Of a stretch of DNA of 64,000 bases, positions 766-63,835 are shown one piece after another; within the stretch, counting starts at the first letter, position 1, and each line of letters starts with the position of its first letter. Below the pieces are notes generated by a model. That model was not told the DNA's origin and did not search any database. It saw only the letters and a program-made list of their open reading frames with translations. Origin of the DNA: Torpedo marmorata (Eukaryota); assembly GCA_977017645.1 (NCBI GenBank), contig OZ360241.1, positions 34,162,001-34,226,000 on the forward strand. Reading direction: 5' to 3'. Made by a program: the position numbers and the translations under genes.

Positions 766-3035
766 ATTATCATGAATCAACACCTACAACCAGTGAGTAT
801 GATTTGTGTTGCTTTCATGTATTAATGCTTCCATACTTTCATTTAAGCAGCACTCCTGATTGATGATGTATGTTGTTTCCCCTTATAGCTCCATGTGAAT
901 TGGATTTTGCTCTCTTGTGTGTCGAACAACCATTCAGTTAGATTATAGTTTGAAAGTGCCAAACAAAGCCGCAATGCAACAAGGTTGCTAATTTCATTTT
1001 TCTTTTTGGCAGAAGTACCAAATAAAAGTGAATCTCCTGAATTTAATGTGACCTTCACTATAACAAACTTGCCCTACATGGAGTCACTTCAGAACCCGGC
1101 GACACCCTTGTTCCAATCAACTTCACAAACAATTACTGAACAGGTAAATAAATGATCAAAGCAATATTCATTAAAATTAATCGTCATTTAATATATTCAG
1201 CTCATTGACATTCTCAAAATATCTTTCTTTCAGCTCACTAACCTACTTAATAACAGCGATATAAATACAACTTTTATAGACTGCAACACAATCTCCTTCA
1301 GGTGAGAAATATGCATTATCTTCCTCATTGTTCAATTAACTAATCTATCCAATAAGCGTCAGGATGGAGGGATCCATCATGTGTTCGGTTCTGAAACGTT
1401 GACTGACCACATCTCTCCATGGATGCTGCCTGACCCACGGAGTCCCTCCAGCTCCTCTTTGTTCACTCAAGATTCCAGCATCTGCAGTGTTTGTGCATCT
1501 CTTCATCGGGAATCTCATCCTTGTCTCAGTGTTTCCTTCTGTACAATTATTTTGTTTCATTTCATTTACTTTCTCCAATGTGTTTGACCTGACTTCACTG
1601 AAATTTCACTCCTCTCTTAAATGGTTGATTGCTTCAGAATTAATTATCATTTCTGGATTTACTTTCCAATCTTTAATATAACTTTAAAATATTTCTCCAT
1701 CTGCTTCCTTTACATATTTCCAAAAGTTCCTACATTAACAATTTTCATTAATAAATTCAAAATCGGATGCATGCCACATTAATATTTACTTTCCTGCCTC
1801 CAAGGGACATTAAAAACTTCCAGCTAAGCATTTTTTTTTCATCAGACTCTGCTACTTACTCCAACTTTCTCTTTCAAATACCATACTTTTTATTATTGAA
1901 TGTTATTTTTAATAGATTGGAAATTTCTAGTTATAATTAAGCTTTTATATTTATTTTTGACTTTTAAGTTAACATTTTAAATTTTGGTTTAAGTTAGCGT
2001 TTAAATTCACTGGTACCATATCTCCATATCATTTATAAAGTGATCCAATTATAATAATTAGCATTACTGTAACAGCAAATTTAAATCAGGGCTCATGAAA
2101 AATAGAGAACTCCAAATGTGATAAATCTGAAATAAAAATTGAGCATGTTTAAACAGTCAACAGATCAAGTAACACATGTGGAAAGAGAAAAGAAAGATCT
2201 TCCACCTAACATGCAATGCGAAAAAGTGCTGGAGAAACACAGCAGGTCACAAAGAATCCATGTGAAGTAAAGTGTAAACAATGTTTCAGGCCTGGGCCCT
2301 TCATCAGGAATCGTTGGTTACCCGTTACTTTCTTTGGATGCTGTGTGGCCTGCTGAGTTTGCGTTCTGCACTCAATTCCAGCATCCGCAGATTTTCTTGT
2401 TTCGCCCCAATCTTCCACCTGAAGCATTTTTCCACAGATGTTGCTGTGTTTCCAGCATTTTTGGTTTTATTATAAAACATGGCCATATTTGAGAATATAA
2501 CCAGTGTATCATAATGACATCTTTATTCCCACAATCAGTAATGATCTATCCACTAAGCCATCAGATTTTGTGCATAAAATTGTCAAATATTTAAGTTATG
2601 AAAACCTTCCTTAAATAAAATCAACCACCTAGAAAGTGCATAAATGTAATTAGTTAAATAATTTTCATTTTAATATCCTCCAGTTTTTCCTATATTTCAT
2701 AATTATCATAATCACCAATTCTGATGAAGTCTCCTTCACCAGAAGTGCTGTTTCTCTTCCCTGTGCTGCTGTCTGACCTGCGAACTAAAAGAGTGCAGCA
2801 TTTTCTGTTTTAGTTTTCCAGGATCTACAGTTTTATGCTCCAAATAAAATGTTCTTGTTTGGCAGTGCTACAAGCAGTCACAAGACCAAAGTGCATGCAG
2901 TCTGTACATTCAACAATACTTCTGCTGCGGAGAATGTGGATAGAGTAATGGTGTATCATCAGATCAGTAACAAGACAAAGAACATCAGTGTTTTGGGACC
3001 CTATACTCTGGACAACAACAGCCTCCATGTAAATG
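766..3035 (+). CDS. SEA module unit 1
   Basis: Exons 766-792, 1013-1143, 1234-1301, 2866-3035; all AG/GT bounded and in frame. Confidence 0.88.
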
Positions 3036-6000
3036 GTACGAAATACCTGGTCTTTTTTTGCATTATATCCTGGAAACCATATTGTAACCTCAGATAATAT
3101 ATTAATATGTTGAATCATTTTTACTCTTATATTTCCAAATGGAATTCTTGCATTAATCAGTGATCCTTAATTCCAGACTCCGTAACCAGCAAAAACATAT
3201 CCTACCAATTCCATGAGTCCTCCTACTGCCTTGATATGGCAATCAAATCAAACCTTGACCTTTTTGTTTGTGTAATCTCTATCTATAAACTAACCCCAGA
3301 AGTCAGGTTTCATTCCAGTAAAAATGTGTTTTTTCCCAATCAAGGTGAATATAACCCTGAATATAACTTTTGCAAGGTGTAGTTAGTGTTTTCAAACATC
3401 TCGGCATTGTCCAACCATGGATTTGCACAATAAAGCACAACTTCTATCCCCTGTGTTCTAGTTTTCTGCATATAAAAGTATCACTGGCCTTACCTCTTAT
3501 TATCTGTTCTTGCCCATAACATTTGAAGTAGGCCGAGGTAGATGAACAACAAAACAATACTGCTGCAGAGAAGGTGGATGGAGTTACCTTGTACCATCAG
3601 TTCAGTAGCAACACAGAGAATATCATGAAATATGGATCTTATATTCTGAATGAAAATAGTCTCGACGTAGATAGTACGAAATTTCTTATCATTCTACATA
3701 TTACAGCAAAGCTTGTTCCAGAATATGTCCAGCAATGTGCCTTTCATTAAACTGTGTGCTGATTTGGTAGTGTTACCTTCCAACTGAATCCCCTTGAATT
3801 CCACTTCCCCACTGGGAGTGCAGTGCTGCATTATTCGTGTGAAAGAAAGGGCTAGTGCAGGTTGGGAAACTTGACTTTTACAAGCAAACTGAATTAAAAA
3901 CTACTGATGCCAGCTGAGAGCAACGTTCAGTATAAGCAAAGTTGCGAGAGTTTCCAATAAACAAGACTGGTACCCCGTTTACACAGAGATCCCACTTAGT
4001 TGCATGTGAACGACCCGTGTTTAAAGCCAGGTCGGGTAGTACACACTTAATGAAGGAAAGCTGGGTCAGTGCGACCATTTACTTAGCAACACGGCATCCG
4101 GAGCAAAAGGCGGTGGGACCTGCAGCATTACAGCGTCGGTGTCCTGTGTGATGTATAACGTACGCGCCGGGCAGTGACCTCGTCGCGACCTCGTTACTGC
4201 CGTTTTAAGTTTGAATCTCTCGCTGGTATGTCATACACATTCAGCGTCATCAATGCGTCACAGCCTGCGAAATACATCGGCTCTGATACTACCTACCTTG
4301 GCGGGTAATACACGGGATGAAAATGACCTCCCATCCCGCGTTTGCTGTGTTCACACAGGTAAGTGAAACGGTTAAAAGGCAGTTAATTCCCGTCTTTTAA
4401 CGGCTGTGTAAAAGGGGTATCGATCTTAAGGAAGAAGTGTCTACATTAATTCTGTAAGACTGTTGAACATGTGAGACCAGACTGATTGATCATGGTTCCT
4501 AATAAGACTGATTACATTAATCTTGTTCAAACACTGTGAAGTATGGTGAAAGACTGATTGAGTTAACCCATTGAAAAATTCATCAGACACCTCCTATTGA
4601 CGAATTCATCAGACACTTCATAAGGAATGTAAAAACAATTAAACCAGCTTGTCTGCTTTCTACTGTACAATATAAAAATGAACTTGTAACTGCTGAAATT
4701 TAGAGTTGGTGGTGGTTTAGGCCACTGCAGGCTCTCCATGATATCATTTTAATAAACTCGAGGAGCGAACCTCGATGTATATGTTTTTGAGTGAATTTGT
4801 GCAACAATTCATTTGAGCTTTTTAACATGTGCACAAAGTCTTCTTGGTTTGATAGAATTAGTGCACCAAATGTAGAAAGTGTTTGACATCAGATTCAGGA
4901 CAGCTGTAATTAATGGCATAATGCTGTTGTCTTTTCAGATTATCATGAATCAACACCTACAACCAGTGAGTATGATTTGTGTTGCTTTCATGTATTAATG
5001 CTTCCATACTTTCATTTAAGCAGCACTCCTGATTGATGATGTATGTTGTTTCCCCTTATAGCTCCATGTGAATTGGATTTTGCTCTCTTGTGTGTCGAAC
5101 AACCATTCAGTTAGATTATAGTTTGAAAGTGCCAAACAAAGCCGCAATGCAACAAGGTTGCTAATTTCATTTTTCTTTTTGGCAGAAGTACCAAATAAAA
5201 GTGAATCTCCTGAATTTAATGTGACCTTCACTATAACAAACTTGCCCTACATGGAGTCACTTCAGAACCCGGCGACACCCTTGTTCCAATCAACTTCACA
5301 AACAATTACTGAACAGGTAAATAAATGATCAAAGCAATATTCATTAAAATTAATCGTCATTTAATATATTCAGCTCATTGACATTCTCAAAATATCTTTC
5401 TTTCAGCTCACTAACCTACTTAATAACAGCGATATAAATACAACTTTTATAGACTGCAACACAATCTCCTTCAGGTGAGAAATATGCATTATCTTCCTCA
5501 TTGTTCAATTAACTAATCTATCCAATAAGCGTCAGGATGGAGGGATCCATCATGTGTTCGGTTCTGAAACGTTGACTGACCACATCTCTCCATGGATGCT
5601 GCCTGACCCACGGAGTCCCTCCAGCTCCTCTTTGTTCACTCAAGATTCCAGCATCTGCAGTGTTTGTGCATCTCTTCATCGGGAATCTCATCCTTGTCTC
5701 GGTGTTTCCTTCTGTACAATTATTTTGTTTCATTTCATTTACTTTCTCCAATGTGTTTGACCTGACTTCTCTGAAATTTCACTCCTCTCTTAAATGGTTG
5801 ATTGCTTCAGAATTAATTATCATTTCTGGATTTACTTTCCAATCTTTAATATAACTTTAAAATATTTCTCCATCTGCTTCCTTTACATATTTCCAAAAGT
5901 TCCTACATTAACAATTTTCATTAATAAATTCAAAATCGGATGCATGCCACATTAATATTTACTTTCCTGCCTCCAAGGGACATTAAAAACTTCCAGCTAA

Positions 6001-9000
6001 GCATTTTTTTTTCATCAGACTCTGCTACTTACTCCAACTTTCTCTTTCAAATACCATACTTTTTATTATTGAATGTTATTTTTAATAGATTGGAAATTTC
6101 TAGTTATAATTAAGCTTTTATATTTATTTTTGACTTTTAAGTTAACATTTTAAATTTTGGTTTAAGTTAGCGTTTAAATTCACTGGTACCATATCTCCAT
6201 ATCATTTATAAAGTGATCCAATTATAATAATTAGCATTACTGTAACAGCAAATTTAAATCAGGGCTCATGAAAAATAGAGAACTCCAAATGTGAGAAATC
6301 TGAAATAAAAATTGAGCATGTTTAAACAGTCAACAGATCAAGTAACACATGTGGAAAGAGAAAAGAAAGATCTTCCACCTGACATGCAATGCGAAAAAGT
6401 GCTGGAGAAACTCAGCAGGTCACGCAGAATCCATGTGAAGTAAAGGGTAAACAATGTTTCGGGCCTGGGCCCTTCATCAGGAATCGTTGGTTACCCGTTT
6501 CTTTCTTTGGATGCTGTGTGGCCTGCTGAGTTTGCGTTCTGCACTCAATTCCAGCATCCGCAGATTTTCTTGTTTAGCCCCAATCTTCCACCTGAAGCAT
6601 TTTTCCACAGATGTTGCTGTGTTTCCAGCATTTTTGGTTTTATTATAAAACATGGCCATATTTGAGAAAAAAACCAGTGTATCATAATGACATCTTTATT
6701 CCCACAGTCAGTAATGATCTATCCATTAAACCATCAGATTTTGTGCATAAAATTGTCAAATATTTAAGTTATGAAAACCATCCTTAAATAAAATCAACCA
6801 CCTATAAAGTGCATGAATGTAATTAGTTAAATAATTTTCATTTTAATATCCTCCAGTTTTTCCTATATTTCATAATTATCATAATCACCAATTCTGATGA
6901 AGTCTCCTTCACCAGAAGTGCTGTTTCTCTTCCCTCTGCTGCTGTCTGACCTGCGAACTAAAAGAGTGCAGCATTTTCTGTTTTAGTTTTCCAGGATCTA
7001 CAGTTTTATGCTCCAAATAAAATGTTCTTGTTTGGCAGTGCTACAAGCAGTCACAAGACCAAAGTGCATGCAGTCTGTACATTCAACAATACTTCTGCTG
7101 CGGAGAATGTGGATAGAGTAATGGTGTATCATCAGATCAGTAACAAGACAAAGAACATCAGTGTTTTGGGACCCTATACTCTGGACAACAACAGCCTCCA
7201 TGTAAATGGTACGAAATACCTGGTCTTTTTTTGCATTATATCCTGGAAACCATATTGTAACCTCAGATAATATATTAATGTGTTGAATCATTTTTACTCT
7301 TATATTTCCAAATGGAATTCTTGCATTAATCAGTGATCCTTAATTCCCGACTCCGTAACCAGCAAAAACATTTCCTATCCATTCCATGAGTCCTCCTACT
7401 GCCTTGATATGGCAATCAAATCAAACCTTGACCTTTTTGTTTGTGTAATCTCTATCTATAAACTAACCCCAGAAGTCAGGTCTCATTCCAGTAAAAATGT
7501 GTTTTTTTCCAATCAAGGTGAATAAAGTTTTGCAAGGTGCAGTTAGTGTTTTCAAAAATCTCGGCATTGTCCAACCATGGATTTGCACAATAAAGCACAA
7601 CTTCTATCCCCTGTGTTCTAGTTTTCTGCATATAAAAGTATCACTGGCCTTACCTCTTATTATCTGTTCTTGCCCATAACATTTGAAGTAGGCCGAGGTA
7701 GATGAACAACAAAACAATACTGCTGCAGAGAAGGTGGATGGAGTTACCTTGTACCATCAGTTCAGTAGCAACACAGAGAACATCATGAAATATGGATCTT
7801 ATATTCTGAATGAAAATAGTCTCGACGTAGATAGTACGAAATTTCTTATCATTCTACATATTACAGCAAAGCTTGTTCCAGAATATGTCCAGCAATGTGC
7901 CTTTCATTAAACTGTGTGCTGATTTGGTAGTGTTACCTTCCAACTGAATCCCCTTGAATTCCACTTCCCCACTGGGAGTGCAGTGCTGCATTATTCGTGT
8001 GAAAGAAAGGGCTAGTGCAGGTTGGGAAACTTGACTTTTACAAGCAAACTGAATTAAAAACTACTGATGCCAGCTGAGAGCAACGTTCAGTATAAGCAAA
8101 GTTGCGAGAGTTTCCAATAAACAAGAGTGGTACCCCGTTTACACAGAGATCCCACTTAGTTGCATGTGAACGACCCATGTTTAAAGCCAGGTCGGGTCGT
8201 ACACACTTAATGAAGGAAAGCTGGGTCAGTGCGACCATTTACATAGCAACACGGCATCCGGAGCAAAAGGAGGTGGGACCTGCAGCATTACAGCGTCGGT
8301 GTCCTGTGTGATGTATAACGTACGCGCCGGGCAGTGACCTCGTCGCGACCTCGTTACTGCCGTTTTAAGTTTGAATCTCTCGCTGGTATGTCGTACACAT
8401 TCAGCGTCATCAATGCGTCACAGCCTGCGAAATACATCGGCTCTGATACTACCTACCTTGGCGGGTAATACACGGGATGAAAATGACCTCCCATCCCGCG
8501 TTTGTTGTGTTCACACAGTTAAGTGAAACAGTTAAAAGGCAGTTAATTCCCGTCTTTTAACGGCTGTGTAAAAGGGGTATCGGTCTTAAGGAAGAAGTGT
8601 CTACATTAATTCTGTAAGACTGTTGAACATGTGAGACCAGACTGATTGATCATGGTTCCTAATAAGACTGATTACATTAATCTTGTTCAAACACTGTGAA
8701 GTATGGTGAAAGACTGATTGAGTTAACCCATTGAAAAATTCATCAGACACCTCCTATTGACGAATTCATCAGACACTTCATAAGGAATGTAAAAACAATT
8801 AAACCAGCTTGTCTGCTTTCTACTGTACAATATAAAAATGAACTTGTAACTGCTGAAATTTAGAGTTGGTGGTGGTTTAGGCCACTGCAGGCTCTCCATG
8901 ATATCATTTTAATAAACTCGAGGAGCGAACCTCGATGTATATGTTTTTGAGTGAATTTGTGCAACAATTCATTTGAGCTTTTTAACATGTGCACAAAGTC

Positions 9001-12000
9001 TTCTTGGTTTGATAGAATTAGTGCACCAAATGTAGAAAGTGTTTGACATCAGATTCAGGACAGCTGTAATTAATGGCATAATGCTGTTGTCTTTTCAGAT
9101 TATCATGAATCAACACCTACAACCAGTGAGTATGATTTGTGTTGCTTTCATGTATTAATGCTTCCATACTTTCATTTAAGCAGCACTCCTGATTGATGAT
9201 GTATGTTGTTTCCCCTTATAGCTCCATGTGAATTGGATTTTGCTCTCTTGTGTGTCGAACAACCATTCAGTTAGATTATAGTTTGAAAGTGCCAAACAAA
9301 GCCGCAATGCAACAAGGTTGCTAATTTCATTTTTCTTTTTGGCAGAAGTACCAAATAAAAGTGAATCTCCTGAATTTAATGTGACCTTCACTATAACAAA
9401 CTTGCCCTACATGGAGTCACTTCAGAACCCGGCGACACCCTTGTTCCAATCAACTTCACAAACAATTACTGAACAGGTAAATAAATGATCAAAGCAATAT
9501 TCATTAAAATTAATCGTCATTTAATATATTCAGCTCATTGACATTCTCAAAATATCTTTCTTTCAGCTCACTAACCTACTTAATAACAGCGATATAAATA
9601 CAACTTTTATAGACTGCAACACAATCTCCTTCAGGTGAGAAATATGCATTATCTTCCTCATTGTTCAATTAACTAATCTATCCAATAAGCGTCAGGATGG
9701 AGGGATCCATCATGTGTTCGGATCTGAAACGTTGACTGACCACATCTCTCCATGGATGCTGCCTGACCCATGGAGTCCCTCCAGCTCCTCTTTGTTCACT
9801 CAAGATTCTAGCATCTAAATATGGATTTGGGAATACTTTTATAAATTGGATTAAAACTATATATAAAGAACCTACAGCTAGAGTAATTACAAATGGTCAG
9901 ATATCATCTAAATTCCCTTTGTTGAGGTCAACAAGACAAGGATGTCCTTTATCACCTGCTTTATTTGTATTGGCAATAGAACCGTTGGCTGAAGTGATTA
10001 GGAAAGATATTAATATAAATGGGATTAAAGTAGGTGCAGAAGAACATAAAATTAGTTTATTTGCAGATGATGTATTAATATATATGACGAAATCTATTGG
10101 ATCGCTTCAACAATTAGCTAAGATATTGAGGGAGTATGGTGAGATATCTGGTTACAAAATAAATTCAGATAAGAGTGAAATAATGGCTTTATCTCAAGGA
10201 GATTATACTAAATGTAAAGAAGTTACAGGATTTAAATGGGCTAAAGAAGGAATTAAATATCTGGGAGTTAAAGTAGATACAAAATTGGAAAATTTATATA
10301 AATTAAATTATGTACCTTTATTTCAGAAAATAAAGAAAGATTTGGAGAATTGGAAAGATTTACCTATTACCTTAATGGGAAGAGTGAATTGTATTAAAAT
10401 GAATATTTTTCCAAGAGTTCAATATCTTTTTCAATCTATTCCTTTTGGAATTCCTCAAAAATTTTTTAAAGATTTAAAAACTATTATTAGAAAATTTCTA
10501 TGGAAAGGAAAATTAGCAAGAGTAAGTATGGATAAATTAACTTGGGAATACGAGATGGGTGGATTACAACTCCCCAATTTTCAATATTATTATAAGGCAG
10601 CTCAATTAAAGTTATTAATGAATTTTTTGATTTAACTAAATCTACTGCTTGGATTAATATAGAATTGAATAATATAGGGGAAAGATATAAAGAAGATATT
10701 ATTTATAAATGGAATTCTAAATTATTATTAGTTAAAAAGAAAAAATCACCGATTATTAAACATTTATTGGAAATCTGGACTCAGTTAGACAATGAGATAG
10801 GACGAAAAGGGTCATTATCTCTGAATATGCCATTGTATCAGAATTTATTGTTACCTTTTTCTATTGATAATCAATTTTTAAAACTATGGTTTCAAAAAGG
10901 AATTAAGAAGATTAAAGATTGTTTTGAGGCTGGAAGATTTGTTACATTTTCTAGGTTGAAAGAAAAATTTGGAATAATGAATAATACAATTTTGGCTTAC
11001 TATCAGGTTAGAGGATATTTAGTTGAGAAATTGGGGAATCAATTAACAACTCCAAGACAGGATGGATTAGAATTATTAATTACGAATGGAAATGTTAACA
11101 AATTTATATCACAAATGTATAAATTACTTCAGAGAAAAATGCCTAAGGTAGGATTACATAAATCAAGATTAAGTTGGGAATCAGATTTAAATATTAATAT
11201 AGATGAAAAACATTGGAAAGAATTATGTAAATTGAGTATGACTAAAATTATTAATGTTAGATATAGATTAGTACAATATAATTTTTTTCATCAATTATAT
11301 TTAACACCTAAAAAATTTCAAGAAATTTAACCCGGCACTATCAGATATGTGTTTTAGATGTAAGGATGAAATAGGTTCTTTTGTACACTGTACATGGTCA
11401 TGTTTAAAAATTCAAAATTTTTGGTCTAAAGTTAAAGATTTTTTGGATAGAATATTTAATATTACGGTTATTTGGAGATATTAAAAAATTTAGTATTAGA
11501 AATAGATTGAATATGTATCAAATAGAATTTTTACGAATTGTCTTAGCGGTTTCAAAAAAATGTATCGCTATTACTTGGAAATCAGACCTAGATTTGAATT
11601 TAGATAGATTACATGCAGAATTACGTTCTTGTATACCATTGGAAAAAATTACATATAATTTACGGAATAATTATCATTTCTTTTTGAAAATTTGGAGCCC
11701 ATATATGAGAATTATGGGTATGAATTAATTCTCTAGAAGTTGGTACCGCTGGCAAAAATAACCTCCAATATATAAATAGAATTAGCTTGTAATTTGTTTT
11801 CTCCTCACTTTAACTCTTTAATTCTTTATTATTCAATTCTTTCTTTTTTTTCTTTATAACTAACATTCTTTTTTTTTCTTCTTTTTTTTTTAGAATAGTG
11901 CTGGGGGGGTTGGGGAGGGGAGGGTGGGAGGGGGGGAGGTAATATATCACATGTATTTTGAATAAAATACTATTTTTGATTCATGTATTTTGTGATTTTA

Positions 12001-54000: not shown

Positions 54001-57000
54001 TTTGGCAGAAGTACCAAATAAAAGTGAATCTCCTGAATTTAATGTGACCTTCACTATAACAAACTTGCCCTACATGGAGTCACTTCAGAACCCGGCGACA
54101 CCCTTGTTCCAATCAACTTCACAAACAATTACTGAACAGGTAAATAAATGATCAAAGCAATATTCATTAAAATTAATCGTCATTTAATATATTCAGCTCA
54201 TTGACATTCTCAAAATATCTTTCTTTCAGCTCACTAACCTACTTAATAACAGCGATATAAATACAACTTTTATAGACTGCAACACAATCTCCTTCAGGTG
54301 AGAAATATGCATTATCTTCCTCATTGTTCAATTAACTAATCTATCCAATAAGCGTCAGGATGGAGGGATCCATCATGTGTTCGGATCTGAAACGTTGACT
54401 GACCACATCTCTCCATGGATGCTGCCTGACCCATGGAGTCCCTCCAGCTCCTCTTTGTTCACTCAAGATTCTAGCATCTAAATATGGATTTGGGAATACT
54501 TTTATAAATTGGATTAAAACTATATATAAAGAACCTACAGCTAGAGTAATTACAAATGGTCAGATATCATCTAAATTCCCTTTGTTGAGGTCAACAAGAC
54601 AAGGATGTCCTTTATCACCTGCTTTATTTGTATTGGCAATAGAACCGTTGGCTGAAGTGATTAGGAAAGATATTAATATAAATGGGATTAAAGTAGGTGC
54701 AGAAGAACATAAAATTAGTTTATTTGCAGATGATGTATTAATATATATGACGAAATCTATTGGATCGCTTCAACAATTAGCTAAGATATTGAGGGAGTAT
54801 GGTGAGATATCTGGTTACAAAATAAATTCAGATAAGAGTGAAATAATGGCTTTATCTCAAGGAGATTATACTAAATGTAAAGAAGTTACAGGATTTAAAT
54901 GGGCTAAAGAAGGAATTAAATATCTGGGAGTTAAAGTAGATACAAAATTGGAAAATTTATATAAATTAAATTATGTACCTTTATTTCAGAAAATAAAGAA
55001 AGATTTGGAGAATTGGAAAGATTTACCTATTACCTTAATGGGAAGAGTGAATTGTATTAAAATGAATATTTTTCCAAGAGTTCAATATCTTTTTCAATCT
55101 ATTCCTTTTGGAATTCCTCAAAATTTTTTTAAAGTTTTAAAAACTATTATTAGAAAATTTCTATGGAAAGGAAAATTAGCAAGAGTAAGTATGGATAAAT
55201 TAACTTGGGAATACGAGATGGGTGGATTACAACTCCCCAATTTTCAATATTATTATAAGGCAGCTCAATTAAAGTTTATTAATGAATTTTTTGATTTAAC
55301 TAAATCTACTGCTTGGATTAATATAGAATTGAATAATATAGGGGAAAGATATAAAGAAGATATTATTTATAAATGGAATTCTAAATTATTATTAGTTAAA
55401 AAGAAAAAATCACCGATTATTAAACATTTATTGGAAATCTGGACTCAGTTAGACAATGAGATAGGACGAAAAGGGTCATTATCTCTGAATATGCCATTGT
55501 ATCAGAATTTATTGTTACCTTTTTCTATTGATAATCAATTTTTAAAACTATGGTTTCAAAAAGGAATTAAGAAGATTAAAGATTGTTTTGAGGCTGGAAG
55601 ATTTGTTACATTTTCTAGGTTGAAAGAAAAATTTGGAATAATGAATAATACAATTTTGGCTTACTATCAGGTTAGAGGATTTTTAGTTGAGAAATTGGGG
55701 AATCAATTAACAACTCCAAGACAGGATGGATTAGAATTATTAATTACTAATGGAAATGTTAACAAATTTATATCACAAATGTATAAATTACTTCAGAGAA
55801 AAATGCCTAAGGTAGGATTACATAAATCAAGATTAAGTTGGGAATCAGATTTAAATATTAATATAGATGAAAAACATTGGAAAGAATTATGTAAATTGAG
55901 TATGACTAAAATTATTAATGTTAGATATAGATTAGTACAATATAATTTTTTTCATCAATTATATTTAACACCTAAAAAATTTCAAGAAATTTAACCCGGC
56001 ACTATCAGATATGTGTTTTAGATGTAAGGATGAAATAGGTTCTTTTGTACACTGTACATGGTCATGTTTAAAAATTCAAAATTTTTGGTCTAAAGTTAAA
56101 GATTTTTTGGATAGAATTTTTAATATTACGGTTATTTGGAGATATTAAAAAATTTAGTATTAGAAATAGATTGAATATGTATCAAATAGAATTTTTACGA
56201 ATTGTCTTAGCGGTTTCAAAAAAATGTATCGCTATTACTTGGAAATCAGACCTAGATTTGAATTTAGATAGATTACATGCAGAATTACGTTCTTGTATAC
56301 CATTGGAAAAAATTACATATAATTTACGGAATAATTATCATTTCTTTTTGAAAATTTGGAGCCCATATATGAGAATTATGGGTATGAATTAATTCTCTAG
56401 AAGTTGGTACCGCTGGCAAAAATAACCTCCAATATATAAATAGAATTAGCTTGTAATTTGTTTTCTCCTCACTTTAACTCTTTAATTCTTTATTATTCAA
56501 TTCTTTCTTTTTTTTCTTTATAACTAACATTCTTTTTTTTTCTTCTTTTTTTTTTAGAATAGTGCTGGGGGGGTTGGGGAGGGGAGGGTGGGAGGGGGGG
56601 AGGTAATATATCACATGTATTTTGAATAATATACTATTTTTGATTCATGTATTTTGTGATTTTAAAATTTAAATAAAATTATTTAAAAAAAAAAAAAAAA
56701 AAGATTCCAGCATCTGCAGTGTTTGTGCATCTCTTCATCGGGAATCTCATCCTTGTCTCGGTGTTTCCTTCTGTACAATTATTTTGTTTCATTTCATTTA
56801 CTTTCTCCCATGTGTTTGACCTGACTTCTCTGAAATTTCACTCCTCTCTTAAATGGTTGATTACTTCAGAATTAATTATCATTTCTGGATTTACTTTCCA
56901 ATCTTTAATATAACTTTAAAATATTTCTCCATCTGCTTCCTTTACATATTTCCAAAAGTTCCTACATTAACAATTTTCATTAATAAATTCAAAATCGGAT

Positions 57001-60000
57001 GCATGCCACATTAATATTTACTTTCCTGCCTCCAAGGGACATTAAAAACTTCCAGCAAAGCATTTTTTTTTCATCAGACTCTGCCACTTACTCCAACTTT
57101 CTCTTTCAAATACCATACTTTTTATTATTGAATGTTATTTTTAATAGATTGCAAATTTCTAGTTATAATAAGGCTTTTATATTTATTTTTGACTTTTAAG
57201 TTAACATTTTAAACTTTGGTTTAAGTTAGCGTTTAAATTCACTGGTACCATATCTCCATATCATTTATAAAGTGATCCAATTATATTAATTAGCATTACT
57301 GTAACAGCAAATTTAAATCAGGGCTCATGAAAAATAGAGAACTCCAAATGTGATAAATCTGAAATAAAAATTGAGCATGTTTAAACAGTCAACAGATCAA
57401 GTAACACATGTGGAAAGAGAAAAGAAAGATCTTCCACCTGACATGTAATGCGCAAAAGTGCTGGAGAAACTCAGCAGGTCACGCAGAATCCATGTGAAGT
57501 AAAGGGTAAACAATGTTTCAGGCCTGGGCCCTTCATCAGGAATCGTTGGTTACCCGTTTCTTTCTTTGGATGCTGTGTGGCCTGCTGAGTTTGCGTTCTG
57601 CACTCAATTCCAGCATCCGCAGATTTTCTTGTTTCGCCCCAATCTTCCACCTGAAGCATTTTTCCACAGATGTTGCTGTGTTTCCAGCATTTTTGGTTTT
57701 ATTATAAAACATGGCCATATTTGAGAAAAAAACCAGTGTATCATAATGACATCTTTATTCCCACAGTCAGTAATGATCTATCCACTAAGCCATCAGATTT
57801 TGTGCATAAAATTGTCAAATATTTAAGTTATGAAAACCATCCTTAAATAAAATCAACCACCTATAAAGTGCATGAATGTAATTAGTTAAATAATTTTCAT
57901 TTTAATATCCTCCAGTTTTTCCTATATTTCATAATTATCATAATCACCAATTCTGATGAAGTCTCCTTCACCAGAAGTGCTGTTTCTCTTCCCTCTGCTG
58001 CTGTCTGACCTGCGAACTAAAAGAGTGCAGCATTTTCTGTTTTAGTTTTCCAGGATCTACAGTTTTATGCTCCAAATAAAATGTTCTTGTTTGGCAGTGC
58101 TACAAGCAGTCACAAGACCAAAGTGCATGCAGTCTGTACATTCAACAATACTTCTGCTGTGGAGAATGTGGATAGAGTAATGGTGTATCATCAGATCAGT
58201 AACAAGACAAAGAACATCAGTGTTTTGGGACCCTATACTCTGGACAACAACAGCCTCCATGTAAATGGTACGAAATACCTGGTCTTTTTTTGCATTATAT
58301 CCTGGAAACCATATTGTAACCTCAGATAATATATTAATGTGTTGAATCATTTTTACTCTTATATTTCCAAATGGAATTCTTGCATTAATCAGTGATCCTT
58401 AATTCCCGACTCCGTAACCAGCAAAAACATTTCCTATCCATTCCATGAGTCCTCCTACTGCCTTGATATGGCAATCAAATCAAACCTTGACCTTTTTGTT
58501 TGTGTAATCTCTATCTATAAACTAACCCCAGAAGTCAGGTTTCATTCCAGTAAAAATGTGTTTTTTCCCAATCAAGGTGAATATAACCCTGAATATAACT
58601 TTTGCAAGGTGTAGTTAGTGTTTTCAAAAATCTCGGCATTGTCCAACCATGGATTTGCACAATAAAGCACAACTTCTATCCCCTGTGTTCTAGTTTTCTG
58701 CATATAAAAGTATCACTGGCCTTACCTCTTATTATCTGTTCTTGCCCATAACATTTGAAGTAGGCCGAGGTATAAACAACAAAACAATACTGCTGCAGAG
58801 AAGGTGGATGGAGTTACCTTGTACCATCAGTTCAGTAGCAACACAGAGAACATCATGAAATATGGATCTTATATTCTGAATGAAAATAGTCTCGACGTAG
58901 ATAGTACGAAATTTCTTATCATTCTACATATTACAGCAAAGCTTGTTCCAGAATATGTCCAGCAATGTGCCTTTCATTAAACTGTGTGCTGATTTGGTAG
59001 TGTTACCTTCCAACTGAATCCCCTTGAATTCCACTTCCCCACTGGGAGTGCAGTGCTGCATTATTCGTGTGAAAGAAAGGGCTAGTGCAGGTTGGGAAAC
59101 TTGACTTTTACAAGCAAACTGAATTAAAAACTACTGATGCCAGCTGAGAGCAACGTTCAGTATAAGCAAAGTTGCGAGAGTTTCCAATAAACAAGACTGG
59201 TACCCCGTTTACACAGAGATCCCACTTAGTGGCATGTGAACGACCCATGTTTAAAGCCAGGTCGGGTCGTACACACTTAATGAAGGAAAGCTATTGACGA
59301 ATTCATCAGACACTTCATAAGGAATGTAAAAACAATTAAACCAGCTTGTCTGCTTTCTACTGTACAATATAAAAATGAACTTGTAACTGCTGAAATTTAG
59401 AGTTGGTGGTGGTTTAGGCCACTGCAGGCTCTCCATGATATCATTTTAATAAACTCGAGGAGCGAACCTCGATGTATATGTTTTTGAGTGAATTTGTGCA
59501 ACAATTCATTTGAGCTTTTTAACATGTGCACAAAGTCTTCTTGGTTTGATAGAATTAGTGCACCAAATGTAGAAAGTGTTTGACATCAGATTCAGGACAG
59601 CTGTAATTAATGGCATAATGCTGTTGTCTTTTCAGATTATCATGAATCAACACCTACAACCAGTGAGTATGATTTGTGTTGCTTTCATGTATTAATGCTT
59701 CCATACTTTCATTTAAGCAGCACTCCTGATTGATGATGTATGTTGTTTCCCCTTATAGCTCCATGTGAATTGGATTTTGCTCTCTTGTGTGTCGAACAAC
59801 CATTCAGTTAGATTATAGTTTGAAAGTGCCAAACAAAGCCGCAATGCAACAAGGTTGCTAATTTCATTTTTCTTTTTGGCAGAAGTACCAAATAAAAGTG
59901 AATCTCCTGAATTTAATGTGACCTTCACTATAACAAACTTGCCCTACATGGAGTCACTTCAGAACCCGGCGACACCCTTGTTCCAATCAACTTCACAAAC

Positions 60001-63000
60001 AATTACTGAACAGGTAAATAAATGATCAAAGCAATATTCATTAAAATTAATCGTCATTTAATATATTCAGCTCATTGACATTCTCAAAATATCTTTCTTT
60101 CAGCTCACTAACCTACTTAATAACAGCGATATAAATACAACTTTTATAGACTGCAACACAATCTCCTTCAGGTGAGAAATATGCATTATCTTCCTCATTG
60201 TTCAATTAACTAATCTATCCAATAAGCGTCAGGATGGAGGGATCCATCATGTGTTCGGTTCTGAAACGTTGACTGACCACATCTCTCCATGGATGCTGCC
60301 TGACCCACGGAGTCCCTCCAGCTCCTCTTTGTTCACTCAAGATTCCAGCATCTGCAGTGTTTGTGCATCTCTTCATCGGGAATCTCATCCTTGTCTCGGT
60401 GTTTCCTTCTGTACAATTATTTTGTTTCATTTCATTTACTTTCTCCAATGTGTTTGACCTGACTTCTCTGAAATTTCACTCCTCTCTTAAATGGTTGATT
60501 GCTTCAGAATTAATTATCATTTCTGGATTTACTTTCCAATCTTTAATATAACTTTAAAATATTTCTCCATCTGCTTCCTTTACATATTTCCAAAAGTTCC
60601 TACATTAACAATTTTCATTAATAAACTCAAAATCGGATGCATGCCACATTAATATTTACTTTCCTGCCTCCAAGGGACATTAAAAACTTCCAGCTAAGCA
60701 TTTTTTTTTCATCAGACTCTGCCACTTACTCCAACTTTCTCTTTCAAATACCATACTTTTTATTATTGAATGTTATTTTTAATAGATTGCAAATTTCTAG
60801 TTATAATTAAGCTTTTATATTTATTTTTGACTTTTAAGTTAACATTTTAAATTTTGGTTTAAGTTAGCGTTTAAATTCACTGGTACCATATCTCCATATC
60901 ATTTATAAAGTGATCCAATTATAATAATTAGCATTACTGTAACAGCAAATTTAAATCAGGGCTCATGAAAAATAGAGAACTCCAAATGTGATAAATCTGA
61001 AATAAAAATTGAGCATGTTTAAACAGTCAACAGATCAAGTAACACATGTGGAAAGAGAAAAGAAAGATCTTCCACCTGACATGCAATGCGAAAAAGTGCT
61101 GGAGAAACACAGCAGGTCACGCAGAATCCATATGAAGTAAAGGGTAAACAATGTTTCAGGCCTGGGCCCTTCATCAGGAATCGTTGGTTACCCGTTACTT
61201 TCTTTGGATGCTGTGTGGCCTGCTGAGTTTGCGTTCTGCACTCAATTCCAGCATCCGCAGATTTTCTTGTTTCGCCCCAATCTTCCACCTGAAGCATTTT
61301 TCCACAGATGTTGCTGTGTTTCCAGCATTTTTGGTTTTATTATAAAACATGGCCATATTTGAGAATATAACCAGTGTATCATAATGACATCTTTATTCCC
61401 ACAATCAGTAATGATCTATCCACTAAGCCATCAGATTTTGTGCATAAAATTGTCAAATATTTAAGTTATGAAAACCATCCTTAAATAAAATCAACCACCT
61501 ATGAAGTGCATGAATGTAATTAGTTAAATAATTTTCATTTTAATATCCTCCAGTTTTTCCTATATTTCATAATTATCATAATCACCAATTCTGATGAAGT
61601 CTCCTTCACCAGAAGTGCTGTTTCTCTTCCCTCTGCTGCTGTCTGACCTGCGAACTAAAAGAGTGCAGCATTTTCTGTTTTAGTTTTCCAGGATCTACAG
61701 TTTTATGCTCCAAATAAAATGTTCTTGTTTGGCAGTGCTACAAGCAGTCACAAGACCAAAGTGCATGCAGTCTGTACATTCAACAATACTTCTGCTGCGG
61801 AGAATGTGGATAGAGTAATGGTGTATCATCAGATCAGTAACAAGACAAAGAACATCAGTGTTTTGGGACCCTATACTCTGGACAACAACAGCCTCCATGT
61901 AAATGGTACGAAATACCTGGTCTTTTTTTGCATTATATCCTGGAAACCATATTGTAACCTCAGATAATATATTAATGTGTTGAATCATATTTACTCTTAT
62001 ATTTCCAAATGGAATTCTTGCATTAATCAGTGATCCTTAATTCCAGACTCCGTAACCAGCAAAAACATTTCCTATCCATTCCATGAGTCCTCCTACTGCC
62101 TTGATATGGCAATCAAATCAAACCTTGACCTTTTTGTTTGTGTAATCTCTATCTATAAACTAACCCCAGAAGTCAGGTTTCATTCCAGTAAAAATGTGTT
62201 TTTTCCCAATCAAGGTGAATATAACCCTGAATATAACTTTTGCAAGGTGTAGTTAGTGTTTTCAAAAATCTCGGCATTGTCCAACCATGGATTTGCACAA
62301 TAAAGCACAACTTCTATCCCCTGTGTTCTAGTTTTCTGCGTATAAAAGTATCACTGGCCTTACCTGTTATTATCTGTTCTTGCCCATAACATTTGAAGTA
62401 GGCCGAGGTAGATGAACAACAAAACAATACTGCTGCAGAGAAGGTGGATGGAGTTACCTTGTACCATCAGTTCAGTAGCAACACAGAGAACATCATGAAA
62501 TATGGATCTTATATTCTGAATGAAAATAGTCTCGACGTAGATAGTACGAAATTTCTTATCATTCTACATATTACAGCAAAGCTTGTTCCAGAATATGTCC
62601 AGCAATGTGCCTTTCATTAAACTGTGTGCTGATTTGGTAGTGTTACCTTCCAACTGAATCCCCTTGAATTCCACTTCCCCACTGGGAGTGCAGTGCTGCA
62701 TTATTCGTGTGAAAGAAAGGGCTAGTGCAGGTTGGGAAACTTGACTTTTACAAGCAAACTGAATTAAAAACTACTGATGCCAGCTGAGAGCAACGTTCAG
62801 TATAAGCAAAGTTGCGCGAGTTTCCAATAAACAAGACTGGTACCCCGTTTACACAGAGATCCCACTTAGTTGCATGTGAACGACCCATGTTTAAAGCCAG
62901 GTCGGGTCGTACACACTTAATGAAGGAAAGCTGGGTCAGTGCGACCATTTACATAGGAACACGGCATCCGGAGCAAAAGGAGGTGGGACCTGCAGCATTA

Positions 63001-63835
63001 CAGCTTCGTTGTCCTGTGTGATGTATAACGTATGTGCCGGGCAGTGACCTCGTCGCGACCTCGTTACTGCCGTTTTAAGTTTGAATCTCTCGCTGGTATG
63101 TCGTACACATTCAACGTCATCAATGCGTCACAGCCTGCGAAATACATCAGCTCTGATACAACCTACCTTGGCGGGTAATACACGGGATGAAAATGACCTC
63201 CCATCCCGCGTTTGTTGTGTTCACACAGGTAAGTGAAACGGTTAAAAGGCAGTTAATTCCCGTCTTTTAACAGCTGTGTAAAAGGGGTATCGGTCTTAAG
63301 GAAGAAGTGTCTACATTAATTCTGTCAGACTGTTGAACATGTGAGACCAGACTGATTGATCATGGGTCCTGATAAGACTGATTACATTAATCTTGTTAAA
63401 ACACTGTGAAGTATGGTGAAAGACTGATTGAGTTAACCCATTGAAAAATTCATCAGACACCTCCTATTGACGAATTCATCAGACACTTCATAAGGAATGT
63501 AAAAACAATTAAACCAGCTTTTCTGCTTTCTACAGTACAATATAAATATGAACTTGTAACTGCTGAAATTTAGAGTTGGTGGTGGTTTAGGCCACTGCAG
63601 GCTCTCCATGATATCATGTTAATAAACTCGAGGAGCGAACCACGATGTATATGTTTTTGAGTGAATTTGTGCAACATTTCATTTGAGCTTTTTAACATGT
63701 GCACAAAGTCTTCTTGGTTTGATAGAATTAGTGCACCAAATGTAGAAAGTGTTTGACATCAGCTTCAGGACAGCTGTAATTAATGGCATAATGCTGTTGT
63801 CTTTTCAGATTATCATGAATCAACACCTACAACCA
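766..63835 (+). CDS. Internal part of a multi-exon gene encoding a tandem SEA-domain (MUC16/CA125-like) glycoprotein; at least 13 complete 132-aa modules; extends beyond both window ends
   Basis: Four exons per unit with polypyrimidine-AG acceptors and GT donors. Intron phases 1,1,0,2 join into a stop-free 396-nt module. Motifs FNVTFTITNLPY, LFQST, C-x18-C, VDRVMVYHQIS and LGPYTLDNNSL(H/Y)VN parallel MUC16 SEA repeat motifs (FTLNFTITNLxY, LDRExLYWELS, LGPYTLDRxSLYVNG). Orthology to MUC16 is not established. Confidence 0.88.
1355..1500 (+). mobile_element. Degenerate short interspersed repeat of elasmobranch Penelope-like type; present in every unit and the target of the L1 insertion
   Basis: tgaaacgttgact...ggatgctgcctgaccc..gagt.cctccagc...caagattccagcatctgcag resembles a very common shark/ray repeat (recognised from memory, not searched). 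Confidence 0.55.
2197..2422. mobile_element. Inverted pair of Penelope-like repeat fragments flanked by a 13-bp direct repeat (atcttccacctga); carries a hammerhead-core motif on the minus strand; present in every unit
   Basis: Left arm tgctggagaaac(a/t)cagcaggtcac..agaatcca and right arm tggatgctgtgtggcctgctgagttt are inverted relatives; direct repeats at 2197-2209 and 2410-2422 (perfect in most units, one mismatch in unit 1). Confidence 0.6.
3553..3673 (+). pseudogene. Relic (diverged duplicate) of the 3' two-thirds of SEA exon D; present in every unit
   Basis: Translates to NNTAAEKVDGVTLYHQFSSNTENIMKYGSYILNENSLDVD versus exon D NTSAAENVDRVMVYHQISNKTKNISVLGPYTLDNNSLHVN; followed by the same donor context gtacgaaat. 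Confidence 0.8.
3971..4419. mobile_element. 449-bp MITE-like non-autonomous DNA transposon
   Basis: 16-bp terminal inverted repeats taccccgtttacacag / ctgtgtaaaaggggta (1 mismatch); GC- and CpG-rich interior; no credible ORF. Confidence 0.8.
4939..7208 (+). CDS. SEA module unit 2
   Basis: Exons 4939-4965, 5186-5316, 5407-5474, 7039-7208. Confidence 0.88.
8131..8579. mobile_element. MITE copy, unit 2
   Basis: Same TIRs and interior. Confidence 0.8.
9099..13604 (+). CDS. SEA module unit 3 (L1 in intron)
   Basis: Exons 9099-9125, 9346-9476, 9567-9634, 13435-13604; synonymous AGC>AGT in exon D. Confidence 0.87.
9817..12037 (+). mobile_element. 5'-truncated L1-clade LINE (ORF2 RT C-terminal part, CCHC knuckle, 3' UTR, poly(A)); frameshifted
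   Basis: RQGCPLSP, LFADD, KYLGV and MGGL motifs; CFRC-x8-H-x4-C near 11348-11403; G-rich 3' UTR; AATAAA and poly(A) tail; 15-bp target duplication aagattc(t/c)agcatct at 9802-9816 and 12038-12052. Confidence 0.95.
14964..19469 (+). CDS. SEA module unit 4 (L1 in intron)
   Basis: Exons 14964-14990, 15211-15341, 15432-15499, 19300-19469; LHVN>LYVN. Confidence 0.87.
15682..17902 (+). mobile_element. Same truncated L1, unit 4 copy
   Basis: Identical junctions; shares the unit 3 frameshift splitting the ORF into 238 + 221 aa. Confidence 0.95.
20392..20840. mobile_element. MITE copy, unit 4
   Basis: Same TIRs and interior. Confidence 0.8.
21360..23618 (+). CDS. SEA module unit 5
   Basis: Exons 21360-21386, 21607-21737, 21828-21895, 23449-23618. 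Confidence 0.87.
24901..25779 (-). mobile_element. 5'-truncated Rex1/Babar-type non-LTR retrotransposon (RT C-terminal region)
   Basis: ORF 25769-25056 with KFADDTTVVG, LNVSKTKEMIVDFRR, FKFLGV, KKARQRLYF and FYRCTVESIL, preceded by HDCV; 3' end AATAAA plus (TTCTGA)n tail; GTTT duplicated at 24897-24900 and 25780-25783; absent from the same site in all other units. Confidence 0.9.
25872..28141 (+). CDS. SEA module unit 6
   Basis: Exons 25872-25898, 26119-26249, 26340-26407, 27972-28141. Confidence 0.87.
29512..31781 (+). CDS. SEA module unit 7
   Basis: Exons 29512-29538, 29759-29889, 29980-30047, 31612-31781; SAAEN>STAEN. Confidence 0.87.
32717..33165. mobile_element. MITE copy, unit 7 (perfect TIR)
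   Basis: Left TIR taccccttttacacag is the exact reverse complement of the right TIR. Confidence 0.8.
33685..38187 (+). CDS. SEA module unit 8 (L1 in intron)
   Basis: Exons 33685-33711, 33932-34062, 34153-34220, 38018-38187; SAAEN>SAVEN. Confidence 0.87.
34403..36620 (+). mobile_element. Same truncated L1, unit 8 copy
   Basis: Identical junctions; uninterrupted 470-aa ORF 34505-35917. Confidence 0.95.
39123..39571. mobile_element. MITE copy, unit 8
   Basis: Same TIRs and interior. Confidence 0.8.
40091..42354 (+). CDS. SEA module unit 9 (divergent subtype)
   Basis: Exons 40091-40117, 40338-40468, 40555-40622, 42185-42354; six amino-acid changes versus consensus. Confidence 0.87.
43723..48226 (+). 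CDS. SEA module unit 10 (L1 in intron)
   Basis: Exons 43723-43749, 43970-44100, 44191-44258, 48057-48226; SAVEN variant. Confidence 0.87.
44441..46659 (+). mobile_element. Same truncated L1, unit 10 copy
   Basis: Identical junctions; 470-aa ORF 44543-45955. Confidence 0.95.
49162..49609. mobile_element. MITE copy, unit 10
   Basis: Same TIRs and interior. Confidence 0.8.
50129..52393 (+). CDS. SEA module unit 11 (divergent subtype)
   Basis: Exons 50129-50155, 50376-50506, 50593-50660, 52224-52393; same variants as unit 9. Confidence 0.87.
53762..58267 (+). CDS. SEA module unit 12 (L1 in intron)
   Basis: Exons 53762-53788, 54009-54139, 54230-54297, 58098-58267; SAVEN variant. Confidence 0.87.
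54480..56700 (+). mobile_element. Same truncated L1, unit 12 copy
   Basis: Identical junctions; 470-aa ORF 54582-55994. Confidence 0.95.
59636..61905 (+). CDS. SEA module unit 13
   Basis: Exons 59636-59662, 59883-60013, 60104-60171, 61736-61905. Confidence 0.87.
62841..63289. mobile_element. MITE copy, unit 13
   Basis: Same TIRs and interior. Confidence 0.8.
63809..63835 (+). CDS. 27-bp linker microexon of unit 14 (rest of unit outside the window)
   Basis: cttttcag|attatcatgaatcaacacctacaacca|gtgagt. Confidence 0.8.

Follow-up and report, generated by a model that had tools for sequence, protein, structure and literature searches.

The window studied here, a stretch of 64,000 nucleotides from the ray Torpedo marmorata (GenBank assembly GCA_977017645.1; contig OZ360241.1, labelled C54 in this report; positions 34,162,001-34,226,000), very probably covers the middle of the SEA-domain array in a gene for a type I membrane mucin that is, together with its tandem neighbour, an elasmobranch co-orthologue of MUC16 (the human ovarian-cancer marker CA125). 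Judging by its sequence, the whole gene (gene 1) appears to be an intact-looking MUC16 co-orthologue with an unusually long and uniform SEA array, and it is a new member of a family already named in databases. A previous sequence-only reading of the window had proposed a hidden MUC16-like gene or paralogue. The gene is indeed hidden from the open reading frame (ORF) track, since a plain ORF listing reveals exon D alone, inside 102-aa frames, but the family has already been named by NCBI in many sharks and rays.

Each unit of the array comprises four exons, A (27 bp), B (131 bp), C (68 bp) and D (170 bp), which sum to 396 nt and are spliced into one SEA module of 132 aa. The ABCD order is unbroken through 13 complete units in the window and a 14th exon A; all 53 exons have AG/GT ends, and the spliced 13-unit series has no stop in one frame, versus 78 and 160 stops in the other two. 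Thus, the at least 13 near-identical modules that the sequence-only reading had assembled from these four exons were all recovered, and so were the near-identical introns, the self-alignment of the window yielding 97-99.7% identity across kilobases, introns included. The coding identity among the 13 units averages 99.4% (minimum 98.2%), and they encode five distinct proteins. When each exon was scored separately against Pfam, exons B and D matched the SEA family above the cut-off (33.4 and 28.8 bits, respectively), and exon C alone gave no SEA match. The motif LGPYTLD..SLYVNG, which that reading cited for mammalian MUC16, is present in its core, but here it reads LGPYTLDNNSL(H/Y)VN and the next residue is Asp; 10 of the 13 window units have His at the variable position. 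Every array module carries a cysteine pair at positions 69 and 88 and nine N-glycosylation sequons, and the cleavage motif is absent. The units are 3.6-6.4 kb long, the differences being due to a 534-bp indel and to inserted retroelements, and within the full array of 34 units (C54:34,105,510-34,247,511) they are numbers 16-28.

The flanks contain the signal, Pro/Thr/Ser-rich (PTS) and transmembrane exons that remained to be sought there, all in open frame. The N-terminus of a stingray orthologue led to the signal exon, which a blind search for exons of this kind had missed. The PTS exon has 5,049 nt (1,682 aa, 76% Pro/Thr/Ser), and a linker exon and one divergent SEA lie between it and the array. 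On the 3' side of the array there are a 27-bp exon, two more SEA domains, the transmembrane exon and a tail exon with the stop codon, encoding a short, basic, tyrosine-bearing tail. The gene 1 model thus contains 37 SEA domains (1+34+2) and, spliced from its coordinates, encodes 6,649 aa without and 6,658 aa with the last 27-bp exon, without internal stops.

A second MUC16-type gene (gene 2) follows in tandem at C54:34,393,026-34,624,600 (L017-L040), with 23 SEA modules and the tail at 34,624,370; its start and transmembrane exon were not located. Whereas gene 1 has a single 5-kb PTS exon, gene 2 has about 148 candidate small PTS exons from 34,393,026 onwards, of 93-102 bp each and about 460 bp apart. 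Some of these PTS exons reappear between the first SEA modules of gene 2. Gene 1 clusters in the trees with skate and stingray sequences and gene 2 with one of an electric ray, which places the animal among the batoids, in line with the elasmobranch origin first proposed. The two-gene arrangement is old, since zebra shark, devil ray, skate and sawfish each have both gene types on a single contig.

Relationship to MUC16 and MUC1

The module, the tail and the chromosomal neighbours all point to MUC16 and not to MUC1, in agreement with the MUC16-like identity first proposed. The array module scored 101 bits against a mammalian MUC16 tandem profile versus 29 against a MUC1 profile (profiles built in this work; 98 sequences), and the gene 1 tail scored 46 bits against the mammalian MUC16 tail profile versus 14 against MUC1. 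A search of the PDB with exon D returned MUC16 chains as the top three matches (E 6e-9 to 2e-8), the best match of exon B was the mouse MUC16 homologue 1IVZ, and TMPRSS ranked far below MUC16. A query with the skate homologue retrieved 44 proteins, 27 of them from 19 cartilaginous fish species; NCBI or UniRef names 24 of these 27 mucin-16-like, and 18 cartilaginous fish species have the NCBI name. The other matches belong to bichir, frogs, reptiles, a bird and mammals. Across the genome, a profile search with Pfam SEA gave matches on C54 only, in 31 of 141 candidates, and so supplied no outgroup.

Regarding the neighbourhood, an ADAMTS spacer exon (C54:35.44 Mb) and class I myosin tail exons (C54:35.65 Mb), both assigned only as far as their Pfam family, lie on the same strand as the gene, and all four genome matches of DOT1 fall at C54:38.3 Mb, the sole DOT1 locus. 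This resembles chicken chromosome 28, where MYO1F, ADAMTS10, MUC16 and DOT1L lie between 1.73 and 2.01 Mb, i.e., within 0.3 Mb (PMC4558091), and a gene list of the human MUC16 locus has also been published (PMC8220141, PMC12143179). A search for the antizyme (OAZ) family gave no match anywhere, controls included, and the myosin exon had no match in a PDB sequence search and no usable match in Atlas.

The ray gene shares with mammalian MUC16 the order signal-PTS-tandem SEA-transmembrane-short tail, the cysteine pair in each module, the LGPYTLD..SL.VN motif, the multi-exon repeat unit, the tail motif, and neighbours like those around chicken MUC16. The two cysteines lie about 20 residues apart in both proteins (69/88 in the ray, 59/79 in human MUC16; PMC3431878), and in MUC16 SEA they form a disulfide (PMC8220141, PMC12143179). 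On the other hand, the mammalian repeat has 156 aa and five exons (PMC3431878), in contrast with the 132 aa and four exons of the ray unit. Since the module spacing also differs from 156 aa in owl, alligator, frogs and lungfish, the 156-aa, five-exon repeat is a primate or placental trait and not a trait of the family. Further differences are that the ray units are about 99% identical in DNA, whereas no pair among 15 domains of baboon MUC16 reaches 95%; that the Gly-Ser-type SEA, with Gly-Ser and both cysteines, is the last one in the ray but the penultimate one in mammalian MUC16; and that the ray has two tandem genes. With MUC1 the ray gene shares the Gly-Ser-Val motif in the membrane-proximal SEA and the PTS-SEA-transmembrane build, but MUC1 has one SEA (two in gecko) versus 37, its human sequence lacks the cysteine pair across the motif, and its tail is longer and unrelated.

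These features would fit an apical glycocalyx mucin in which SEA beads, disulfide-bearing and heavily N-glycosylated, form a chain that keeps an O-glycosylated PTS brush at a distance from the membrane. The single membrane-proximal SEA, with its MUC1-like Gly-Ser tight turn, would probably cleave itself, and the cysteine pair across the turn could keep the cleaved halves linked. The array is probably kept uniform by unequal crossing-over and conversion, introns and retroelement insertions being copied along with the exons, and the module chosen for amplification would vary between lineages.

That the gene belongs to a different family of multi-SEA mucins (MUC1-like or agrin-like) and has converged on MUC16 is very improbable and has been largely refuted. 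The identity to baboon tandem and terminal MUC16 domains is just 29-38%, the MUC1 profile gives the membrane-proximal SEA 43-48 bits, and the SEA trees had MUC1 as sole outgroup, with no agrin, perlecan, IMPG or TMPRSS domains. However, the profile scores, the tail alignment, the PDB ranking and the neighbours all favour MUC16, and the domain classes track the species tree from sharks to mammals.

Turnover of the array and other ways to explain it

The 34 whole units comprise 33 distinct sequences, units 6 and 7 being identical end to end. The mean distance among them is 1.2% in exons and 1.8% in introns, and the most divergent units are the last three and the first. In units 2-31 the four-gamete test fails for 1,656 of the 7,875 pairs of 126 informative sites, with failures increasing from 10% of close pairs to 26% of distant pairs, and copies of a long interspersed nuclear element (LINE) sit on both states of the 534-bp indel. 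We infer from this pattern an unequal crossing-over with exchange inside units. In the domain tree (429 domains, FastTree, 113 columns, midpoint root; three duplicate proteins and domains shorter than 90 aa omitted, identical modules collapsed), all 13 distinct proteins of the array fall into a single clade (0.996), with unamplified modules of Mobula and Hemitrygon as its sisters, and the single leading module of gene 1 nests among the amplified modules of these two stingrays and of skates. The recent homogenisation and ongoing turnover claimed by the sequence-only reading are therefore borne out by the four-gamete violations, the gradient towards the edges, the shared LINE and the one-clade array.

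The mucin-16-like proteins of Amblyraja (P0001), Leucoraja (P0002), Hemitrygon (P0007), Mobula (P0011) and Pristis (P0046) are of the orthologous type, their last two SEA domains, transmembrane segment and tail grouping together. In the Mobula and Hemitrygon models, which may be incomplete, the module amplified 34-fold in Torpedo is single, and vice versa. Different lineages thus appear to have amplified different modules, and the units appear to recombine. Blocks of domains at least 95% alike were found in owl (8 of 15), Hemitrygon (8 of 17), Mobula (8 of 15) and bichir (5 of 12) and none in baboon, counts taken from database protein models that may be truncated, suggesting that such homogenisation is widespread among non-mammals. 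As an example of concerted evolution in a coding repeat of several exons, the 34-unit array is a clean one, in which the inserted retroelements serve as markers.

There is a small probability that the gene is real but its unit number is inflated, or the unit order wrong, through the assembly of near-identical repeats. Such an error would be favoured by units about 99% identical, by the identical units 6 and 7, and by a two-unit higher-order repeat at window positions 33340-59288 (period about 10,038 bp), in which 15.9 kb recur at 99.75% identity and which is either the latest expansion step or the likeliest spot for an assembly error. Against it stand the distinctness of the other units, two unit-specific insertions, the shared LINE, the 534-bp indel and the edge gradient; in addition, there is no N in 664 kb, and all 89 exon-D matches lie on C54.

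Somewhat less probable still is that the array is a segmental repeat under neutral expansion, with most of its exons skipped, or that the gene is decaying. Several observations lean this way and weigh against an intact MUC16 co-orthologue: omega among units is about 0.85 (30 non-synonymous and 10 synonymous variants; p 0.70 versus neutrality), the absence of stops among the 40 variants has a chance probability of 0.25, and the variable columns in exons (37 of 396) and introns (455 of 3,777) do not differ significantly (p 0.12). Exon A of unit 12 (C54:34,147,144; L051) has a broken, AC acceptor and is skipped in the gene 1 model, a 27-nt skip that leaves the frame intact, and sense-strand LINEs with a poly-A end lie in five introns. 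Selection among units, weak to judge from omega, is supported by the lack of exon indels in the 34 units versus some 40 distinct intronic indel events. This lack argues against neutral expansion or decay, as do the signal, PTS, transmembrane and tail exons intact in one frame and the extended runs of similar modules that database models show for the orthologues of other rays, bichir, paddlefish, lungfish and owl.

The membrane-proximal SEA and the age of the family

In the 429-domain tree a separate clade of 40 domains (support 1.0) unites the SEA that comes last in cartilaginous fishes, bichir and frogs with the one that is second to last in reptiles, birds and mammals. At the position aligned to the Gly of human MUC1 GSVVV, 41 of 45 non-mammalian domains have a plain Gly-Ser, two a short insertion and two Gly-Pro. 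Both Torpedo genes have Gly-Ser in their membrane-proximal SEA, whereas the array modules have a longer loop without this motif. In the model of the horn-shark orthologue (P0084), whose fold resembles MUC16 and other SEA structures, the Gly lies in the turn between strands 183-192 and 195-204 and the Ser opens the second strand, with a predicted local distance difference test (pLDDT) score above 90 there; a single-sequence fold of P0014 (mean pLDDT 38) was not used. A PDB sequence search with the last exon of the Gly-Ser SEA gave no match.

In non-placentals, cysteines flank the Gly-Ser motif. Among 16 placental-type proteins (four named, 12 unnamed), Gly-Ser is present in six and Asp or Asn in ten, and none has the second cysteine. 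A loss of the Gly in all mammals was therefore rejected, since a marsupial and these six proteins keep Gly-Ser. By its place in the tree, the membrane-proximal SEA is orthologous to the human DSVLV domain, which Maeda et al. clustered with GSVVV (as told in PMC3431878). In amniotes the last SEA clusters with the one that is penultimate in frogs (0.967; more weakly, at 0.84 with lungfish, in a second tree), so that the two terminal domains stand in a different order in the two groups. The Gly-Ser-type SEA is present twice in proteins of chimaera, bichir and reedfish (P0023, P0029, P0129). Such a doubling may have opened the way to the altered order of domains seen in amniotes.

Self-cleavage of MUC1 at GSVVV is established (PMC9564314), and DSVLV was proposed as its analogue in human MUC16 (PMC4456727), but tagged constructs of the human protein showed no cleavage upstream of the last 12 extracellular residues (PMC4456727; PMC3431878). 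The membrane-proximal SEA of fishes probably does cleave itself, to judge from the motif; nevertheless, a Gly-Ser motif is no proof of cleavage, and the cysteine pair might prevent it. As shark, frog and reptile orthologues of the uncleaved human DSVLV domain keep Gly-Ser, cleavage can be assayed in natural variants, and these orthologues bear on the old question of CA125 release.

A full HMMER search with the catshark orthologue gave 203 proteins at E <=0.001, of which 150 were listed and 30 looked up by name; the latter include proteins of lungfish, coelacanth, sturgeon, reedfish, caecilian, turtles and marsupials, mucin-1 of a gecko, and two proteins from lamprey that carry the labels mucin-2-like and mucin-5AC-like. 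None of the named proteins is from a teleost, but with only 30 looked up a loss in teleosts was not adopted. The mucin-2-like protein of Lethenteron reissneri (P0089) has 14-15 SEA domains, the last with Gly-Ser and flanking cysteines, a transmembrane segment, and a tail that scores 46 bits against the mammalian MUC16 tail profile versus 19 against MUC1; its tandem domains, however, make up a clade of their own, and the tandem motif of gnathostomes is missing from them. The mucin-5AC-like one (P0173) is an unusual hybrid of two WxxW/CysD domains, as known from gel-forming mucins, a Gly-Ser SEA, a transmembrane helix and a MUC16-like tail.

The full MUC16 architecture is thus placed in cartilaginous fishes and probably in lamprey, and the ancient multi-SEA architecture that the first reading had envisaged finds its counterpart in the 37-SEA ray gene, in like builds of other vertebrates and in the lamprey protein. 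In the literature consulted, MUC16 is traced as far as birds and mammals, chicken Muc16 having four SEA domains or more, and many membrane mucins are called missing in fish (PMC1552070); MUC16 does not appear in the available part of PMC4948705. We found no paper on MUC16 in sharks, rays or lamprey in a search that left out subscription journals, so that absence from print is not shown. The sequences analysed here extend the architecture to cartilaginous fishes and suggest a gene as old as vertebrates that would once have had a self-cutting site, lost from the human protein. The vertebrate-wide age, the ancestral Gly-Ser site and the module switching go beyond the routine and rest on predicted proteins.

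The MUC1 domains are on the same side of the second tree as the Gly-Ser and lamprey domains (0.984), a position that without other outgroups does not show descent. Proteins of lizards, snakes, turtles and birds bear the name mucin-1 in NCBI, that of a gecko (P0178) having two SEA domains, whereas MUC1 has been presented as arising in mammals (PMC9564314). We offer tentatively a joint reading that we consider possible but rather less than likely. MUC16 would be pan-vertebrate, from lamprey to man, and would ancestrally end in a self-cleaving, disulfide-stapled SEA at the membrane. In amniotes a tandem-type SEA would have come behind it, and placentals would have lost the second cysteine and many of them, primates included, also the Gly. 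Human DSVLV would then be a dead relic, with juxtamembrane proteolysis as a replacement; MUC1 may be an offshoot of the same SEA-transmembrane module, and the upstream array would be a copy-number rheostat rebuilt in each lineage from a different module.

Intronic elements and feature positions

Features of gene 1 and its introns (window positions unless preceded by C54)
Feature	Position	Exons A, B, C, D	Strand	Remark
SEA unit 16	766..3035	766-792, 1013-1143, 1234-1301, 2866-3035	+	
SEA unit 17	4939..7208	4939-4965, 5186-5316, 5407-5474, 7039-7208	+	
SEA unit 18	9099..13604	9099-9125, 9346-9476, 9567-9634, 13435-13604	+	
SEA unit 19	14964..19469	14964-14990, 15211-15341, 15432-15499, 19300-19469	+	
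SEA unit 20	21360..23618	21360-21386, 21607-21737, 21828-21895, 23449-23618	+	
SEA unit 21	25872..28141	25872-25898, 26119-26249, 26340-26407, 27972-28141	+	
SEA unit 22	29512..31781	29512-29538, 29759-29889, 29980-30047, 31612-31781	+	
SEA unit 23	33685..38187	33685-33711, 33932-34062, 34153-34220, 38018-38187	+	
SEA unit 24	40091..42354	40091-40117, 40338-40468, 40555-40622, 42185-42354	+	variant type
SEA unit 25	43723..48226	43723-43749, 43970-44100, 44191-44258, 48057-48226	+	
SEA unit 26	50129..52393	50129-50155, 50376-50506, 50593-50660, 52224-52393	+	variant type
SEA unit 27	53762..58267	53762-53788, 54009-54139, 54230-54297, 58098-58267	+	
SEA unit 28	59636..61905	59636-59662, 59883-60013, 60104-60171, 61736-61905	+	
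Exon A of unit 29	63809..63835		+	array runs on to contig position 34,247,511
Signal exon, gene 1	C54:34,073,162			
Transmembrane exon, gene 1	C54:34,276,957			
5'-truncated LINE, unit 18	9816..12039		+	intron C-D; reverse transcriptase, poly-A tail, target-site duplication
Retroelement fragment, 883 bp	24900..25780		-	reverse transcriptase and ALKBH8_N/DUF1891 matches; intron D-A of unit 20 only
Degenerate partial second exon D copy	3500..3680		+	D-A intron of all 13 window units
Unit 4 (L048), with a 522-bp insertion	C54:34,117,504-34,120,291		opposite (insertion)	short target-site duplication; intron C-D, that unit only

The decayed copy of exon D appears to be a relic of an earlier duplication that was carried through the whole expansion; as a candidate fifth exon it was rejected because its splice phase is wrong. 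Besides unit 18, the LINE is found in units 19, 23, 25 and 27 (15681-17904, 34402-36622, 44440-46661 and 54479-56702), the copies showing three to eight differences in 2.2 kb, and a single insertion appears to have spread to the five units. The LINE lies in the sense of the gene, with an AATAAA ahead of its poly-A tail. Intronic copies of this kind could end transcripts early and give rise to secreted forms without the membrane anchor.

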